Positions 3,462 to 11,582 of a stretch of 64,000 nucleotides of DNA are shown piece by piece. The stretch comes from Candidatus Enterousia sp. (GTDB lineage Bacteria; Pseudomonadota; Alphaproteobacteria; Rs-D84). The notes below the pieces were generated by a model. It saw nothing but the letters and a program-made list of their open reading frames with translations. It searched no databases and was not told where the DNA came from. The stretch lies in NCBI GenBank assembly GCA_045613925.1, contig JAZLBV010000009.1:26554-90553 (forward strand), read 5' to 3'. A program made the position numbers and the translations under genes. The first letter of the stretch is position 1; each line of letters opens with the position of its first letter.

Positions 3462-5006
3462 TTAGAACAATTTGAATTTGTATGTTGTTCCAGCGCGAAA
3501 TGCCAGATCAGAACTAGACAAACCAGCCCCTGCATTAACAGACCATCTGTTGGACAATCCCATCGCTGCACCGAACGCCATAGCAGATTGGCCATTGTAA
3601 TAACCATATCCACCACTTACAGCGACTTCACCCTTTTGAACACCAGATGTAGACACAGAACTCAACGCAACAGCACTAGCAATACCACTGGATAAATCTT
3701 TGTTCAATTTTTCAACACGTTCATCAGTGTATGCCCTTGCCTGATTTAATGTCAATGCGTTGCCTGCATCAGCATATGCTTTGGCCGCATTTAACGTCAA
3801 CGCATCGCCTGCATCAGCATAAGATTGCGCCGATGCTAATGTTGTTGCATCGCCAGTATCAGCATATGCTTTTGCATTTGTTTCTGCGGCATCTGCCGAA
3901 CCTGCTGCATCATAGTTATCAGCCAAACTATCAGCGTATGCTTTTGCATTTGTTTCCGCAGTATCTGCCGAACCCGCTGCATCATAATTAGATGCTAAAC
4001 CATCAGCATAATCTTTTGCGTTTTGCAACGTGGCAGCTTGCACAGTTTCTATTGGTGTATTATACAAAGTGGCAGCAGCAGCTTCTAATGCTTGATCTTC
4101 TGTAAAATCACCTTGACGCGCCAATTGAGCTTGTTGTGCCTGCCCTAACAAAGTTGTCGCATCAGTATATGTTTCATAATAAGCTGTTAATGTAGATATT
4201 GTAGCTTCATCTGTAGTATAAATACCATTTGCATTAGCAAATGCAGTCGCTTCTGCAGTTGCATAACCGTCAACAGTAGTTTTTGCAGTAGTAATCTCAG
4301 CAGAATCATCAGCAAAAGCGGCAACCATCTCGCCAAATGCAGTTTCTTGAGCAGAACCAGCAGTTGGTGTCTGTTCCATATTCAATGCGTCCACTAATTT
4401 TGTTCCGTCATCACTTAAATGATATACTGCACCGGTATCAGGGTCTGTCCAAACATACATACTGCCAGTCAACACGGGTGCAGCAGAACTATCTGTAACA
4501 TCAACAGAATCAACTGTCGCATATGTGGAATTTAAAGCAACTGTTTCTGTAAAGGATTGAGCCGTTTCACCCAAAGTGACAGTTTCGCCTTTTCCATTAA
4601 CATATTCATAATTGCTACGTGATATTGTTTGGTCTGCAGCAATTGTTTGATGCGATATAACATCAACACCATCCGCAACAGTATCACCATAAAAATCAGA
4701 CGCTGTCAAATCTGTGCCACCTGTGGCTAAATCCGCATCAGGATCACCATCTTTATCTATATATTTAAAACTTGATAAATCTGGATTTACATTTTGTGCA
4801 ACGGTGGTTGTTAAAGGTTCATTCAACCCATCATATCCATACGTGTATGTATATGTATAAGACGAACCATTTAAAGCTGTTCCAACATTGGCTGTTGAAC
4901 CATTACCTAATTGATAATCACCAGCAAAGGTCACATCCGTATCAGCACTTGCTGCACCTGTTGCAACAATTGCCAACAAAGATGTTAAAATTAATGTTTT
5001 TTTCAT
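3462..5006 (-). CDS. Trimeric autotransporter adhesin (YadA-like, type Vc)
   Basis: Signal peptide MKKTLILTSLLAIVATGAASA. Stalk-like repeats (NAKAYADSLADNYDAAGSAD...). C-terminal YadA-type anchor (GIASAVALSS...GEVAVSGGYGYYNGQSAMAFGAA...RAGTTYKFKLF). Confidence 0.75.
   Translation of the reverse strand: MKKTLILTSLLAIVATGAASADTDVTFAGDYQLGNGSTANVGTALNGSSYTYTYTYGYDGLNEPLTTTVAQNVNPDLSSFKYIDKDGDPDADLATGGTDLTASDFYGDTVADGVDVISHQTIAADQTISRSNYEYVNGKGETVTLGETAQSFTETVALNSTYATVDSVDVTDSSAAPVLTGSMYVWTDPDTGAVYHLSDDGTKLVDALNMEQTPTAGSAQETAFGEMVAAFADDSAEITTAKTTVDGYATAEATAFANANGIYTTDEATISTLTAYYETYTDATTLLGQAQQAQLARQGDFTEDQALEAAAATLYNTPIETVQAATLQNAKDYADGLASNYDAAGSADTAETNAKAYADSLADNYDAAGSADAAETNAKAYADTGDATTLASAQSYADAGDALTLNAAKAYADAGNALTLNQARAYTDERVEKLNKDLSSGIASAVALSSVSTSGVQKGEVAVSGGYGYYNGQSAMAFGAAMGLSNRWSVNAGAGLSSSDLAFRAGTTYKFKLF
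3866..4009. repeat. Two tandem 72-bp (24-codon) repeats inside the adhesin stalk, with more diverged copies further 5' on the plus strand (about 3740-3865)
   Basis: 3866-3937 and 3938-4009 both start atgcttttgcatttgtttc and encode AKAYADSLADNYDAAGSAD(T/A)AETN. Confidence 0.8.
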
Positions 5007-5914: not shown

Positions 5915-8596
5915 CTAGAAATTATATCTGAACTTCACACGACCAGATTGTGATGTGTAATCTTCACGTGCTTCGATATCATAATTCAAAGACAAATCTA
6001 ATCCACGATAATTCATTGTCAAACCGATGCCGAATTCACCAGCTATGCGGGACAAACGTTCACCGTTCAACGCATAGGCATTTACACCAGGCATTGTAAC
6101 AGTTGCAACTTGTTTGTCTGACAACATATCATATTTAACCGCGTAATTTAATTCTGGACGCAAAGTGAAACGTTTTGTTGCTTTGATATCAAATGCATAC
6201 TTTGTTCCAAGTGATGCCGTCAAATAATCCGCATCAGCCAATTCGTTTTTGATACCCAAAGAATTGATATAATCCGACGAATTGATATGCATATAACGCA
6301 ATCCCAATTCAGGTGTTATACCACCGACAAAATCATAACCTGTCGCGATATTTGCACCGAATGAATCAACATCATACTTTGCAGAAATGCCTGTACCCAA
6401 TGCGGCACCTGTTTCGGTATAATCAGCCATTGTATAATTTGCAACCAAATTCATATACCACGCGCTTGGCTTATATTGCCCATACACAAAGACAGAAGAC
6501 GAATCGATTTCTGTATCACGTGCAGTTCCACTTATATCAGAATGTGCAAACGCATACCCTGCACCGATTGTCCACACTTTGTCAAGTGTACCGTCCAAAC
6601 CAGCTGCAATTCCACGTGTATAACCGTTAAATGCATCACTATGCTTTGATTTGTTAAAGATACCCTGGGCCCAAACACCACCAGATGTCATCTTTACATC
6701 ACCACCATTACGACCAACCGTCGGCATAGACATACGTCCAGCAGCCAAAGACGTCACTGTGTTTTGAACAGAAGACGACACCGACTGCACAACCGATTGA
6801 GTTTCAGGATGAATAGCCGCCTGGGCATGTTCAACCTCTGCACGTTCCACATCTGTTCCAGATGCTAACTTTTCCTGGATAACAACAGCCAAATCGTTAA
6901 GTGTTTCAGATGTAGATGTCATCAAACCAGAAATCGCAGTTGCTGTTTCAGTACTAAGATTATTATCAGACGCAATATCTTCAACAGATTTTTGCGTAAC
7001 AACCAAGGTACCTTCGTTCCAATTTAAATCGTACACAGAACTGGACACATCAACATTGTCAAATATTTTCCCACCGAAAACTTTATACGTTCCAGCATCA
7101 GAAAATGACAATTTCAATTCACCATCACCATCAAACTTTGTAGTGGCAGTAATCTGAGCATCATCACCAGAACGTACTGTCGCCAACATAGTTCCATTCA
7201 AAGTGATCGTGTTAACATTAACATTGTTGGTACCAATGTTCATCGTTGCCCCAGAATCAACAGTCAACACACTACTTGCACTAACACCAGCAACATCGTT
7301 ATTAAATACACTTGTTCCAGATGTCAACGTCATTTCGCCAATATTCAACTTTCCGCCATTGAAAGTCGCATCTGCGATAGTTGCATTTTCAACGATAATT
7401 CCACGATCCATATCAGCAATATTCACAGTACCATTGTCAATATTCAAATTATTCAAAGCGATATAATATTTACCAGATGTAACATCTAAACCTGTTTCAT
7501 CATCAACGACCACAGTTTGCTCATTTGTAATCTTTGTCGCATTCCACACAGCACCATTAGACAAAGATAATCTAAAATTATTAACAGCCAACACGCTTTC
7601 TGCTGGTTCATCAGCATAATAATATTCCACAAGCGTATTTCCTGTCCAATAAGATTGAGCATCAGTTAAATTAATGTTAACATATGCATCTATCGGTGAA
7701 TTTGAATTTCCAGAGCTTCCAGGATTGGAATAAAAATTGAAATTCATATCACCATCCATTTTTACAGTATTTTTACCAGATTCATTAACATTAACAGTCG
7801 CATAACCACGTGCCAAAATTGCATTTTTAGCATTAACTGTTAAATTACCATCCAAATCAATCCAACCGTTACTCATTGCCTCAATACCAGTTTCAGTGGC
7901 AGTTAAATTAATATTTTTTGCCTTTATATCCACAAAACTTGTATCTTCTTTAGCTTTTGTTAAATCTGCCGTTCCAAACCCAGCGTGAATGGCAGAATCT
8001 TGAGCAGATATATTAACATCACCGGTTGCTTCCACCGTTATTTGACCTTTGCGATAATTAGCCATAAGACCTGTATCAACACCATCAACAGTTAAATTAT
8101 TCGCTTTAACACTTATGGATGCATTTTCATATGCGTGTATAGCATCACTAGCAGAAACATTTACATCATTGCTAGCAACAACATCTATAGCGCCTTGATA
8201 CGTATAAAGCCCACCATTGTTTCCAATAACCGTAATATCCCTACTTTTTAAATTTATATAACTTCCCGGTCCGGCTACAGCACCATATCCTCCTTCTTTG
8301 GTATCAGATAATTTTATAGTTTGGGTTGTATCTCCACCAAGAAAAACTTTGGAATCATCATACCACGCTTGTATAGCACGTACTTTTTCATTTTCGTTAA
8401 TATTAATATCAATATTGTCAACAGATAACGTACCTGTCTTTCCATAAATTGCATTTACCCGTTCTAGCAAAATCCCATCTGAAAAAGTTGAATTTAAATT
8501 GATATCGTCATCAATTTCAACCGCAACAGCAGGCATAACCAGCAACGCAGGCAAAACAGATATTCCAACTAAAAAACCGTGAAAATGCTTGTTCAT
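5915..8596 (-). CDS. Classical (type Va) autotransporter with a large repetitive passenger domain
   Basis: 893 aa. Signal peptide MNKHFHGFLVGISVLPALLVMPAVA. Asn/Gly/Thr/Val-rich passenger with beta-helix-like periodicity. C-terminal beta-barrel with alternating hydrophobic pattern, ending RVKFRYNF. Confidence 0.8.
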   Translation of the reverse strand: MNKHFHGFLVGISVLPALLVMPAVAVEIDDDINLNSTFSDGILLERVNAIYGKTGTLSVDNIDININENEKVRAIQAWYDDSKVFLGGDTTQTIKLSDTKEGGYGAVAGPGSYINLKSRDITVIGNNGGLYTYQGAIDVVASNDVNVSASDAIHAYENASISVKANNLTVDGVDTGLMANYRKGQITVEATGDVNISAQDSAIHAGFGTADLTKAKEDTSFVDIKAKNINLTATETGIEAMSNGWIDLDGNLTVNAKNAILARGYATVNVNESGKNTVKMDGDMNFNFYSNPGSSGNSNSPIDAYVNINLTDAQSYWTGNTLVEYYYADEPAESVLAVNNFRLSLSNGAVWNATKITNEQTVVVDDETGLDVTSGKYYIALNNLNIDNGTVNIADMDRGIIVENATIADATFNGGKLNIGEMTLTSGTSVFNNDVAGVSASSVLTVDSGATMNIGTNNVNVNTITLNGTMLATVRSGDDAQITATTKFDGDGELKLSFSDAGTYKVFGGKIFDNVDVSSSVYDLNWNEGTLVVTQKSVEDIASDNNLSTETATAISGLMTSTSETLNDLAVVIQEKLASGTDVERAEVEHAQAAIHPETQSVVQSVSSSVQNTVTSLAAGRMSMPTVGRNGGDVKMTSGGVWAQGIFNKSKHSDAFNGYTRGIAAGLDGTLDKVWTIGAGYAFAHSDISGTARDTEIDSSSVFVYGQYKPSAWYMNLVANYTMADYTETGAALGTGISAKYDVDSFGANIATGYDFVGGITPELGLRYMHINSSDYINSLGIKNELADADYLTASLGTKYAFDIKATKRFTLRPELNYAVKYDMLSDKQVATVTMPGVNAYALNGERLSRIAGEFGIGLTMNYRGLDLSLNYDIEAREDYTSQSGRVKFRYNF

Positions 8597-8824
8597 TTAT
8601 GCTCTCCTTTTTTCTGGTTTCCTTACGTGTAATTCTTACTACATAAAAACACACAAAGCAACCTTTTTTATTTCACAACAAAATTAAACTGACAATAAAG
8701 AATACAGGTTTCGCCACTTCGTTAAAACTTCGTGGTGCAAGCGCCAAGGCTTTGCGAGACACTCCTTCGCCTTTGCTACTCTGCTTGGGTGGCCTGCCAC
8801 TCAGACCGCGTCGCAGACGCGAAG

Positions 8825-8913
8825 TGTGGTTGGGGTACACGGATTGTAATTCCCACTCGCTACGTTCGTGGGCCCCTTTCGGCTTCGCCACGAACTGAAC
8901 AACTTCGTTGTAC
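8825..8913. repeat. Direct repeat copy 1 (89 bp), beginning with a copy of the 3' end of tRNA-Gln
   Basis: 88/89 identical to 10472-10560. It contains tggttggggtacacggatt, the reverse complement of the tRNA-Gln T-loop/acceptor/CCA end, and an 8-bp hairpin gttcgtgg...ccacgaac. Confidence 0.9.
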
Positions 8914-8972
8914 TGTCAAACCGTGACCAAAAAAACCAAAAATTAAACCCGTCTTTCGACGGGGTGAATTTT

Positions 8973-8988
8973 TGGTTGTGGGGTGCGG
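8973..8988. repeat. Left arm of a perfect 16-bp inverted repeat flanking the radical-SAM gene
   Basis: tggttgtggggtgcgg is the exact reverse complement of ccgcaccccacaacca at 10263-10278. It resembles a degenerate tRNA-Gln 3' end (tggtt-ggggtacacgg). Confidence 0.9.
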
Positions 8989-9043
8989 GCAAAACGCGAA
9001 TGTATTGATTTTATTGTTTGACAAATTATAATATTATGCAACA

Positions 9044-10195
9044 ATGGGTGGCATGACTAACGCTATTGAACCTTTAAAGCAATTTACAACATCTGCTGAA
9101 ATTCTGGCGGACTACGCAAATAACACGCCTGGGGACACTTATACCACAGAAGAATTAATTTCGTTTATTTGTGATGGTTCTGTTCCGTATAAAAAGCGAT
9201 TGTTTGTATTCTTTGATCATCCCCGATTTAAAAAAGATGATAAATTCGCTGTATTATATAATAATCAATGCTGTAATTGGAAAGAATTGTATAATCTTAT
9301 GGTTTGTGCATCATATCATGTATATTTTGATACAACATATTATTGTGATTTAGAATGCAGGCATTGCATATCAGATGCGGGACCAAATCAGCCGATGAAA
9401 TTTATGCCCGCTGGTGACATCACGCATTACATAGAACAAGCAAAAGTAGAACACATGTCTGTGTGTCATTTTGCTTTGTTTGGTGGTGAACCAATATTCG
9501 CAGAAATTCACCATAATGGTTATTTTGAACAAATATCCAAGACTATCGGTGATAAAGAAATGGCATTCAGTACAAACGGTAATTGGATTAATGACAAACA
9601 TGCTGATCATTTGATTAGCGAAATTATCAAGATGTATGAAACGATCCCAAAATTTTTATTTCAAATATCTGTAAGTAGATTCCACAAAAACTCTGTAGAA
9701 AATGCGAAAAAAATTATTCAAAAATTGGATAGCAATGTACACAAACCAATCTGTGTGCATATTCACGGATTTGATTTTGATACCGTAGAATTTAAATCAC
9801 AATGTGACACATTATCGACCAACAATGTGCATGTTCGTCTTGATTTTGAATCAGGCATTGTTTCTGGAGGGCGCGCTGCAACAATGCCAGGTAAAACATC
9901 TTGTAATAGTGACCATGATGCCAAGCGTGCCATTATAATTGGGGATGAAGAAATCCCAGGGAATATATGTTTTGCAGTAATGAAACCGTGTGCATTCGAT
10001 AGTTGCAATAAAATGCGCATCAGCTTACATTTTACCCCAGATGGACAAGTTTTTACCCGCGATAGATTGAATCCTAATAAAAAATATACTACGCCAATCA
10101 AAACCCGATTAGGCGAATACAGAACTTATGGCAAAATAATTCAATCTTTGGCACATCAAATATTCAATAATTACAAAGGCCAAATAGAAAAATAA
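9044..10195 (+). CDS. Radical SAM domain protein (orphan, function unknown)
   Basis: 383 aa. CX3CX2C cluster motif (CDLECRHC) about 95 aa from the N-terminus, followed by a GGEP-type motif (FALFGGEPIF). C-terminal Cys triad ICFAVMKPCAFDSC. Confidence 0.75.
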   Translation: MGGMTNAIEPLKQFTTSAEILADYANNTPGDTYTTEELISFICDGSVPYKKRLFVFFDHPRFKKDDKFAVLYNNQCCNWKELYNLMVCASYHVYFDTTYYCDLECRHCISDAGPNQPMKFMPAGDITHYIEQAKVEHMSVCHFALFGGEPIFAEIHHNGYFEQISKTIGDKEMAFSTNGNWINDKHADHLISEIIKMYETIPKFLFQISVSRFHKNSVENAKKIIQKLDSNVHKPICVHIHGFDFDTVEFKSQCDTLSTNNVHVRLDFESGIVSGGRAATMPGKTSCNSDHDAKRAIIIGDEEIPGNICFAVMKPCAFDSCNKMRISLHFTPDGQVFTRDRLNPNKKYTTPIKTRLGEYRTYGKIIQSLAHQIFNNYKGQIEK

Positions 10196-10240
10196 AAACG
10201 CTAAAAACATGGCGTTAACGAATTTGATATTACGTTGATA

Positions 10241-10384
10241 ATGCCGAAAAGTAAAGGTTTGTCCGCACCCCACAACCACAATGAACAGTTAATGTTAAGC
10301 GGGGTATGTTATTGTTGTAAATTTAACCTTTTTATTGGTTCGAATGTTTTTAGCGATTTATTGTTAGTTCGAAAGTGTTGGTAG
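10241..10384 (+). CDS. Hypothetical 47-aa Cys-containing small ORF downstream of the radical-SAM gene (speculative)
   Basis: Hand translation gives MPKSKGLSAPHNHNEQLMLSGVCYCCKFNLFIGSNVFSDLLLVRKCW-stop. It is below the ORF-track size cutoff and has no convincing SD. It overlaps the right inverted-repeat arm. Confidence 0.2.
   Translation: MPKSKGLSAPHNHNEQLMLSGVCYCCKFNLFIGSNVFSDLLLVRKCW
10263..10278. repeat. Right arm of the perfect 16-bp inverted repeat flanking the radical-SAM gene
   Basis: ccgcaccccacaacca is the reverse complement of 8973-8988. Confidence 0.9.
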
Positions 10385-10471
10385 TGACATAATTTTTTAA
10401 GAATTAACTTTCGAACTTCTGCAGCCCAAGCAATCCAAACAAAAAATCGCCCCAGCGGGCAATTTGTTAAC

Positions 10472-10560
10472 TGTGGTTGGGGTACACGGATTGTAATTCC
10501 CACTCGCTACGTTCGTGGGCCCCTTTCGGCTTCGCCACGAACCGAACAACTTCGTTGTAC
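10472..10560. repeat. Direct repeat copy 2 (89 bp), 55 nt from the tRNA-Gln gene
   Basis: 88/89 identical to 8825-8913 (single T/C difference in cgaac[t/c]gaac). The flanks beyond it are homologous but much more diverged. Confidence 0.9.
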
Positions 10561-10615
10561 GATTGAACCACGACCTAAACCAAAAATTAAACCGGCAAAA
10601 TGCCGGTTGAATTCT

Positions 10616-10689
10616 TGGTTGGGGTACACGGATTCGAACCGCGATATACAGAGTCAGAGTCTGCTGTTCTACCGTTAAACTATACCCCA
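10616..10689 (-). tRNA. tRNA-Gln (anticodon CUG), CCA encoded
   Basis: Hand-folded cloverleaf: acceptor TGGGGTA/TACCCCA, D stem GTTT/GAAC, anticodon stem GCAGA/TCTGT, loop CTCTGAC (CTG), 4-nt variable loop, T arm CGCGG-TTCGAAT-CCGTG, discriminator A, then CCA. The 5' UGGGGUA is typical of bacterial tRNA-Gln. Confidence 0.9.
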
Positions 10690-10725
10690 ATTCGGGAACA
10701 CATTATATAGATAATATTTGCTTTT

Positions 10726-11460
10726 TCAATCAAATATTTTAATTTCACCAAAATCATCGTGCGTTGCGTTTTCTATAATTATTATATCGTCAACATTTGC
10801 CCAACTCTGCGCCAAAGCAACAGGAACAACCCTGTCCCGCCCACCAATAAAATGTTTCTGGGGCACATTTGGCAAAGATTTCAAATCCATCGATTCGCCC
10901 AAGGCTTCATCCCCAAAAAAATCAGTCCATTTTTTATGGTTCAAAACACCGGCAATTGTAATCCATTTTTCTATTTTCATTTTTGGATTTTGATTGATAA
11001 CTAAACCAGACACCAGCGCACCACCAGAATATCCAACCAAAGTTATTTTTTTATCACCGGCAACCTGCGCCACAGCATTTGATTCTGCATCTATGATTTT
11101 TTTTGAAAAACGCCCACTGGTCCAATCAGATTCAGAACAATTTTGATTTGAAATAAATTGGCACGGTCGTGCAATATAAACCACATTATCAAAATTATCA
11201 CGCGCCGCCAAATCACGAACTAACGTCCCACGCGGTGTTGGATTACTTGTCGGTTGCCCATATACATCAAAAGCGTTTCCATCGCCTTCTATATAAATAT
11301 GAATATAAGAATCTTTTGGATTATTTATCTTTTGCCAGGTTGCAATTTCATATTCCCCAGTATCAATTGGCACATAAATAAACCCATCTGGTGCCACCCA
11401 TTCACGCCCAGCACAACCAATCAAAACTAAACAAAATAAAATTGAAAACAACTTTTTCAT
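10726..11460 (-). CDS. Alpha/beta-hydrolase-fold lipoprotein (putative esterase/lipase)
   Basis: Start moved to the ATG at 11460 (MKKLFSILFCLVLIGCAG, lipobox). GxSxG nucleophile elbow (GYSGGA). C-terminal ATHDDF His motif. Confidence 0.5.
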   Translation of the reverse strand: MKKLFSILFCLVLIGCAGREWVAPDGFIYVPIDTGEYEIATWQKINNPKDSYIHIYIEGDGNAFDVYGQPTSNPTPRGTLVRDLAARDNFDNVVYIARPCQFISNQNCSESDWTSGRFSKKIIDAESNAVAQVAGDKKITLVGYSGGALVSGLVINQNPKMKIEKWITIAGVLNHKKWTDFFGDEALGESMDLKSLPNVPQKHFIGGRDRVVPVALAQSWANVDDIIIIENATHDDFGEIKIFD

Positions 11461-11582
11461 CAGAATGATAATACTATATTCACACAACACCGGCAAAGCA
11501 AAATATCGTCTGGAAAACTATTTTTTTTATGTTATAATCGCACCGATTTGAATTGAACACTCAAATAACAAAAGGAAGAATT

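Follow-up and report, generated by a model that had tools for sequence, protein, structure and literature searches.

Copies of the tRNA-Gln 3' end and an integrase-less gene cassette in Candidatus Enterousia as probable remains of large-serine-recombinase attachment sites

The stretch analyzed here (the window, 64,000 nt of contig JAZLBV010000009.1) belongs to a Candidatus Enterousia genome of 870 kb in 19 contigs and contains a single tRNA gene, tRNA-Gln(CUG). Behind this gene the tRNA's 3' end is present in two further exact copies, each closing a repeat of about 100 nt (modules a and b), and between the two repeats lies a 1.6-kb islet with one protein-coding gene, its cargo. Coordinates are those of the window, and the features of the locus are given below in the direction of tRNA transcription.

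10729-10702, minus strand: promoter-like site of tRNA-Gln(CUG) (promoter scan).
10616-10689, minus strand: tRNA-Gln(CUG) gene, the single tRNA of the window (ARAGORN; Rfam tRNA, 67 bits).
10616-10634, minus strand: tail copy A, the last 19 nt of tRNA-Gln(CUG).
10580-10615, minus strand: native-type spacer and intrinsic terminator 1 of tRNA-Gln, with a hairpin at 10590-10608 followed by a T run (terminator scan).
10474-10579, minus strand: module a (repeat families D1 and D2; covariance model R1, 84 bits; alignment A1).
10282-10473, minus strand: conserved cassette left end with a terminator at 10444-10465, 80% identical to a second locus on contig C19.
10258-10281, no strand assigned: left arm of a 24-nt inverted repeat (I2), an inverted pseudo-tRNA end.
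9044-10195, plus strand: cargo gene, encoding an orphan radical-SAM protein of 383 amino acids (PF04055, E 4.7e-7).
8970-8993, no strand assigned: cassette right end, at once the inverted repeat's right arm and a pseudo-tRNA-Gln tail (CCGCACCCCACAACCA in tRNA sense).
8933-8969, minus strand: spacer and terminator 2, with a hairpin at 8948-8963 (terminator scan).
8827-8932, minus strand: module b, closing in tail copy C at 8827-8845 (R1, 82.6 bits; 88/89 identity to module a).
8825-10471, no strand assigned: unit of gain or loss, 1647 nt, one module plus the cassette (empty-site contig).

The 19-mer that runs from A58 to A76 (CCA) of tRNA-Gln occurs, as its reverse complement, in exact form at 8827, 10474 and 10616. 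By chance 0.01 copies are expected in the window and none of 100 shuffles reached three; no additional copy was found in the window when up to three mismatches were allowed. The original prediction, made from the sequence of the window, had described this triplication, the near-identical 89-bp direct repeats and the diverged tails behind them, and all three are borne out by measurement: blocks 8825-8913 and 10472-10560 are identical at 88 of 89 positions, with a single T/C difference at 8896; at 92% identity the repeat can be followed over 111 nt; and past it lies a homologous but diverged tail, in which a common 17-mer precedes two different terminator hairpins with compensatory differences. 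The degenerate tRNA end reported beside one repeat is likewise real (8975-8990), and it is also an arm of an inverted repeat that the prediction had missed, a 24-nt pair (8970-8993 and 10258-10281, 92% complementary) that brackets the radical-SAM open reading frame.

Read in tRNA sense, module a consists of a degenerate inverted tail, the 5' half of the T-arm (CGGTTCG), a 45-nt insert in which a hairpin stands between the conserved GAAAGGGGCCC and TGGGAATTAC, and the exact 19-nt tail (tail copy B, 10474-10492). The order of terminator 1 upstream of it (AAAATTCAA, hairpin, T run) is also found 3' of tRNA-Gln in relatives, and terminator 2 is very similar to the one native to tRNA-Gln(CUG) in G020, another species of the genus. 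The islet is bounded by the tRNA gene and a direct repeat of its 3' end (~20 nt), as are the tandem islands of large serine recombinases at RNA-gene 3' ends, and tail identity begins at A58, so that the crossover boundary would lie in the T-loop. An Rfam search of 8000-11500 at E values up to 10 matched the tRNA alone and no RtT. We also considered and rejected a reading of the module as a tmRNA or permuted tRNA, since ARAGORN is silent there and the T-stem is unable to form.

The cassette left end contains an inverted pair of 11-mers, AGTTCGAAAGT and ACTTTCGAACT, at 10366-10376 and 10407-10417, and we take the segment 10282-10473 to be a putative relic of a serine-recombinase element, namely of its left end. 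Judged by its sequence, the right end (8970-8993) looks like an attR site, and it agrees with the consensus right end of related cassettes and of recombinase-bearing elements. The same layout of inverted repeats is found around other cargo in C19, L030 and L033.

Two observations concern these arms in general. Wherever cargo is antisense, inverted repeats of 22-24 nt resembling tRNA-Gln tails stand on both sides of it, and sense cargo is without the left arm. Placed end to end, the arms would make a palindrome of 48 bp, close in size to a serine-recombinase attP site.

The radical-SAM protein itself is rare, with only seven protein clusters among 5.8 billion sequences, and its homologues occur in other contexts, namely behind tRNA-Gln(UUG) and at the ychF 3' end, which is present there in duplicate. 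The latter case is seen in an ENA metagenome contig (L112:2380-4290), in which an 83%-identical radical-SAM gene sits at the ychF 3' end and the final ~40 nt of ychF are duplicated on the far side, the same logic of rebuilding the interrupted end applied to a protein gene. For the radical-SAM cargo PADLOC gave a weak viperin-like match only (E 3e-4). A good promoter-like site (TTGATT, 16 nt, TATAAT; 9005-9032) stops ~11 nt before the ATG, and no ribosome-binding site is visible in the upstream region 9005-9046; the mRNA may be nearly leaderless.

To place the modules in context, we searched the genome for further copies and carried out a covariance analysis, two of the checks that the original prediction had proposed for the repeat. 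About 10 of the 46 tRNAs of this genome are followed, 120-180 nt downstream, by a copy of their own tail. Among them are Ser-GCT (21/21), Arg-CCG (20/20), Arg-ACG (19/19) and Gln-CTG (19/19, twice), together with Ser-GGA, Pro-GGG, Glu, Pro-TGG, Val-TAC (in tandem) and Tyr. After the tRNA terminator the module order is a degenerate inverted tail, the 5' half of the T-arm (GGTTCG), a hairpin-bearing insert of 45-70 nt, and the tail from A58. In the module type of the window, an invariant GAAAGGG and TGGGAATTAC surround a hairpin that covaries, its inner pairs varying compensatorily. The covariance model R1 matches 84 of 101 genus genomes (~280 matches). Of the 34 instances at the 29 best loci outside this genome, 26 follow a same-strand tRNA at a distance of 115-175 nt and match its tail, exactly (19/19) in 23 of the 26; the tRNAs belong to eleven species.

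The original prediction had taken the duplicated tRNA end for an attL/attR footprint and had opposed to this a common genome-wide repeat unrelated to tRNA-Gln. The family is indeed genome-wide, but it is strictly tRNA-linked and fitted to each tRNA, which strengthens the attachment-site reading rather than refuting it. As a single strand the module folds weakly better than shuffles (z about -1.8), and the terminator and promoter scans found no promoter-like site of their own at the modules and a terminator upstream of each.

The genus also encodes recombinases whose genes reach into tRNA genes. Large serine recombinases of ~510 amino acids (PF00239, PF07508, PF13408) are present in 30 of the 101 genomes; in G004, for instance, a protein of 511 amino acids with resolvase, recombinase and zinc-ribbon domains adjoins tRNA-Gln(UUG). 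In 22 of 25 loci the recombinase open reading frame ends antisense within a tRNA gene (Gln, Pro, Met, Asn, His or Arg), with an overlap of ~60 nt (L118-L139; e.g. L118:1487-3030), and the last ~20 recombinase residues are therefore dictated by the tRNA sequence; the final 21 residues of the recombinase at the tRNA-Gln site are the antisense translation of tRNA-Gln. The 11-mer pair and its 41-nt spacing are invariant in these elements, ~80 nt from the tRNA end in the region coding for the recombinase C-terminus, even though the recombinases that share the invariant 11-mers are only 40% identical to each other. The pair in the islet has the sequence, the spacing and the position relative to the tail seen in recombinase-bearing elements. 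A plain operator and promoter was considered for the 11-mers, which precede a TGnTATAAT-like box in sense cassettes, and was rejected; because they lie inside the coding sequence of complete elements, we treat them as a putative element-end site.

At their other ends, the elements of this recombinase clade show a T-loop-like motif and the tRNA's last 6-9 nt, after which comes the native terminator, and the islet closes in the same manner. In a second clade, a 15-kb element in G108 starts at tRNA-His with serine recombinase genes, and its far end, 15.1 kb from the tRNA, carries a full-length R1 match (37 bits, E 3e-7) with an exact 19/19 tail and the native terminator. An element of G061 ends in another module type. 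These two ends indicate that the modules are right-end arms of such elements. The absence of an integrase between the repeats, already remarked upon in the original prediction, was confirmed: a large serine recombinase was found neither in the islet nor anywhere in this genome.

To look for an allele without the islet, Logan contigs (contigs, not reads) of four gut metagenomes were aligned to window positions 8300-11000. In run X2, one contig of 366 nt with 3 mismatches joins 8824 to 10472, skipping exactly 1647 nt, that is, one repeat period, and the cassette interior is without coverage. This contig implies a near-identical strain with the tRNA, the terminator, one module and the same downstream flank, so that the empty-site check suggested with the prediction has a positive outcome. 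In run X3, a radical-SAM gene of 91% identity lies directly against a terminator and a tRNA-Gln tail, and ENA locus L116 is alike. With the far end of the G108 element, the 11-mer pair and the empty site, the predicted attachment-site footprint at a tRNA stands, but the enzyme to which it points is a large serine recombinase and not a classical tyrosine integrase.

Cassettes with the same architecture recur elsewhere. Behind tRNA-Gln(UUG), on contig C19, a second locus of this genome has the same part order as the islet of the window: tRNA, terminator, module, a conserved left end of ~170 nt, antisense cargo between 22-nt inverted repeats, pseudo-tRNA tail, terminator and second module. In 20 relatives, the regions behind both tRNA-Gln genes (CUG and UUG) contain one to four such cassettes, and two more genomes have cassettes between modules that end in tRNA-Gln or tRNA-Pro tails, the tRNA-Pro tail being seen once. 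The cargo varies by cassette and includes Fic (a strong SoFic match), an S41 peptidase, an HD domain protein, ankyrin repeats, ART-PolyVal, isochorismatase, GNAT, a radical-SAM protein and several proteins of unknown family. The HD cargo of a UUG locus is 97% identical to that of a locus with CUG-type tails, and near-identical cargo is thus found at two different tRNA-Gln loci.

The Fic cargo, 366 amino acids long, gives a full-length match to the anti-phage protein SoFic (E 7e-91; L045:110-1207 in G006, and L027 in G001), which indicates that at least some cassettes carry defence genes.

We consider it likely that the repeats are attR-type right arms of tRNA-targeting large-serine-recombinase elements, and that the islet is a derived, integrase-less cassette that was moved as a circle. 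Each module would end in the displaced 19-nt tail, from T-loop to CCA, of the local tRNA. The left end of the islet would retain, from the recombinase-proximal end, the conserved terminator and the inverted pair of 11-mers, and its right end would comprise the pseudo-tRNA-Gln tail, then a copy of a foreign tRNA-Gln terminator, then the module. The likeness of terminator 2 to the terminator of G020 fits a foreign origin of that part. We infer the excision and integration steps, and the enzyme performing them. In a donor genome, a cassette would have been integrated at the end of tRNA-Gln, and recombination between identical tails or modules would have freed a circle made of the cassette, the pseudo-tail, the donor terminator and the module. 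This circle would then have re-entered the present chromosome at the resident module, either by homologous recombination over ~100 nt or through a recombinase acting in trans and since lost. Such re-entry would yield the order module-cassette-module, and the reverse event would remove exactly 1647 nt. Entry at a resident module would also explain why a near-identical block of 89 nt stands beside diverged flanks.

Several points weigh against this interpretation. As this genome has no large serine recombinase, current mobility is unproven. Two site types coexist, modules sharing 19 nt with the tRNA and cassette-type elements sharing its last 6-9 nt, and no single enzyme therefore explains everything. 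Modules are present in 84 of 101 genomes, compared to 30 of 101 for the recombinase, and their mostly exact tails, which are not expected of a dead scar, point to ongoing gene conversion, to an origin not long ago or to a function that they have themselves. The case for an empty site consists of a single assembled contig of low depth (3.5x) in which gain and loss are indistinguishable, and the site could equally be explained by loss through homologous recombination. Finally, no circular junction turned up in the metagenome contigs, which were not subjected to a dedicated search for one.

Two further features of the window bear on alternative explanations.

8700-8826, minus strand: leader relic of a tRNA-end-linked GIY-YIG gene, 127 nt, with the open reading frame missing (alignment A3; blastn to the copy on contig C14).
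5258-5857, plus strand: Mpi-family serine invertase of 199 amino acids (NF009949, 277 bits, above the curated cut-off).

The leader relic includes positions 8712-8745, which had been predicted to be a degenerate piece of the repeat and do not belong to it. Alignment A3 has a mean column identity of 70% with long invariant blocks. The relic is GC-rich and hairpin-rich, and the stems of such leaders (~100 nt) vary compensatorily between genomes; the intact copy of leader and gene in this genome lies on contig C14 (7401-7751), behind tRNA-Pro(CGG). The gene, which encodes 81 amino acids (PF01541, E 3e-16), is found in 33 of 81 genomes, and ~23 of 30 copies lie ~100-270 nt (most ~100-120) behind a tRNA end, with the conserved structured leader in front; some are then followed by a module or a restarted tail. 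At the window locus the nuclease open reading frame is absent, and the published SRM motif has 0 matches in the genome as against 1-2 in shuffles. A small element with GATAAACAAT...ATTGTTTATC ends, or a remnant of it of 25-30 nt, is also seen within tail copies at L013, L016, L017 and L030; it is flanked by tail duplications of 7-8 nt, and its right end corresponds to the sequence just past the GIY-YIG stop codon. The invertase gene lies between a YadA-anchor gene (3462-5006, minus strand) and an autotransporter gene (5915-8596, minus strand), a setting that suggests phase variation of surface proteins.

One alternative, which we regard as unlikely, is that the modules are functional RNA elements, either read-through small RNAs or processing signals like E. 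coli RrA/B/F, whose tRNA-like 3' end serves RNase processing, the islet being an incidental insertion between tandem copies. Their layout does match that of E. coli tRNA-linked repeats, some of which are read-through small RNAs (PMC8144298), their hairpins show compensatory changes between modules, and they outnumber the recombinases while keeping exact tails in 23 of 26 cases; yet they have no Rfam match, a folding z of about -1.8, a terminator upstream and no promoter-like site of their own, and a 15-kb recombinase element has a module as its end. The last of these facts also tells against a second proposal, to which we give little credence, namely that the modules derive from Ssn-like GIY-YIG cassettes by loss of the gene, or are recognition hairpins for them, with break-induced repair duplicating the tails and moving the cassette. 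Ssn nucleases cut hairpin repeats in single-stranded DNA (PMC11893778), the GIY-YIG gene is widespread (33/81 genomes) and mostly behind tRNA ends (~23/30 copies), at times with a module or restarted tail following, and the leader relic abuts module b; but the leader always begins after the CCA and not in the T-loop, many module-bearing genomes are without a GIY-YIG match, and the absence of the SRM motif from the genome also speaks against it.

The inverted repeat raises the question of inversion. A 1.3-kb segment between its 24-nt arms might be an invertible, phase-variable gene flipped by the Mpi-family invertase 3 kb away, whose assignment is above the curated cut-off (NF009949, 277 bits); the repeat flanks the gene, and a conserved region resembling a promoter is directed at the gene's 3' end. 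We hold this to be very improbable, given that the arms are without internal dyad symmetry, that the invertase was not found near the tRNA-Gln arrays of the 20 relatives, and that the four metagenome runs contained no strand-switch joint, although contigs alone make this a weak test. The invertase was also rejected as the enzyme of the cassettes, on the same lack of linkage to the arrays and of inversion joints. It appears extremely improbable that a classical tyrosine-integrase island or prophage at tRNA-Gln left this locus behind as a remnant: a tail duplication from the T-loop is typical of such islands and the genome has three tyrosine recombinase genes (PF00589), but all three are on other contigs, the islet is without phage genes, and the homologous complete elements of relatives carry serine recombinases.

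For the attachment-site interpretation, the closest published parallel is the ssrA islands of Dehalococcoides, in which tandem islands with the large serine recombinase DsiB lie behind a small RNA gene, bounded by ~20-nt direct repeats of the gene 3' end with the insertion point in the T-loop (PMC3146451). Each repeat has a conserved non-target motif immediately upstream, the recombinase is encoded beside attL on the reverse strand, and some islands are integrase-less and considered cis-mobilizable (PMC3146451). The Enterousia locus is alike in its tandem units, ~20-nt 3'-end repeats, T-loop boundary and integrase-less units. It differs in that its targets are many tRNA genes and not one tmRNA gene, its units are one-gene cassettes of 1-2 kb, the recombinase open reading frame runs into the tRNA itself and is present in relatives and not in this genome, and the right arm is a partial tRNA copy of ~100 nt that bears a hairpin. 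Staphylococcal cassette chromosome (SCC) and SCCmec composites, including the ccr-less pseudo-SCC of staphylococci, are likewise large-serine-recombinase elements stacked at the 3' end of a conserved gene and separated by direct repeats of the gene end, with recombinase-less units movable only with help. In contrast to these, the Enterousia target is a tRNA and not rlmH, the elements are far smaller, and there are no resistance genes.

The cassettes also recall integrons, sharing with them single-gene cassettes, variable accessory cargo, one fixed site and conserved junctions, but they are without an IntI tyrosine recombinase, attI or attC hairpin, their junctions are modelled on tRNA ends, and each cassette brings its own promoter-like region. 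The modules in turn resemble the tRNA-linked repeats of E. coli (Egan and Landy 1978; Rudd 1999; both cited in PMC8144298), a class of bacterial repeat that has lacked an explanation since 1978, most members having no known origin or function. Like these repeats, the modules lie downstream of a tRNA on the same strand, often past its terminator and sometimes in tandem, with the last 18-19 nt equal to the tRNA 3' end (19/19 in both window copies); unlike them, the modules have no sequence or Rfam (RtT) similarity and are tied to the ends of mobile elements.

The islet is a known mode of genomic-island building in miniature, without its enzyme. What the locus adds is a tie between tRNA-linked repeat modules and the ends of serine-recombinase elements, together with a natural empty site, and it joins two topics that are usually handled apart, the repeats that copy tRNA 3' ends and the site-specific capture of genes at tRNAs. 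A broader generalization is possible but doubtful: tRNA-linked repeats in general might be attachment-site arms, with the serine recombinase gene reading across its own attachment site into the tRNA, and the Enterousia arms and recombinase-less one-gene cassettes might form an integron-like capture platform at tRNA-Gln that is driven by another enzyme than that of integrons and swaps defence and effector genes between strains. If the tie between modules and element ends holds, tRNA-linked repeats would gain a testable origin as arms of serine-recombinase attachment sites, and the partial tRNA copies behind many tRNA genes of the genus would be explained for annotation. Furthermore, the recombinases that read into tRNAs would constitute a natural set of enzymes with short, known and highly conserved targets, and very small gut alphaproteobacterial genomes of ~0.9 Mb would hold a miniature store of cassettes at tRNA-Gln.

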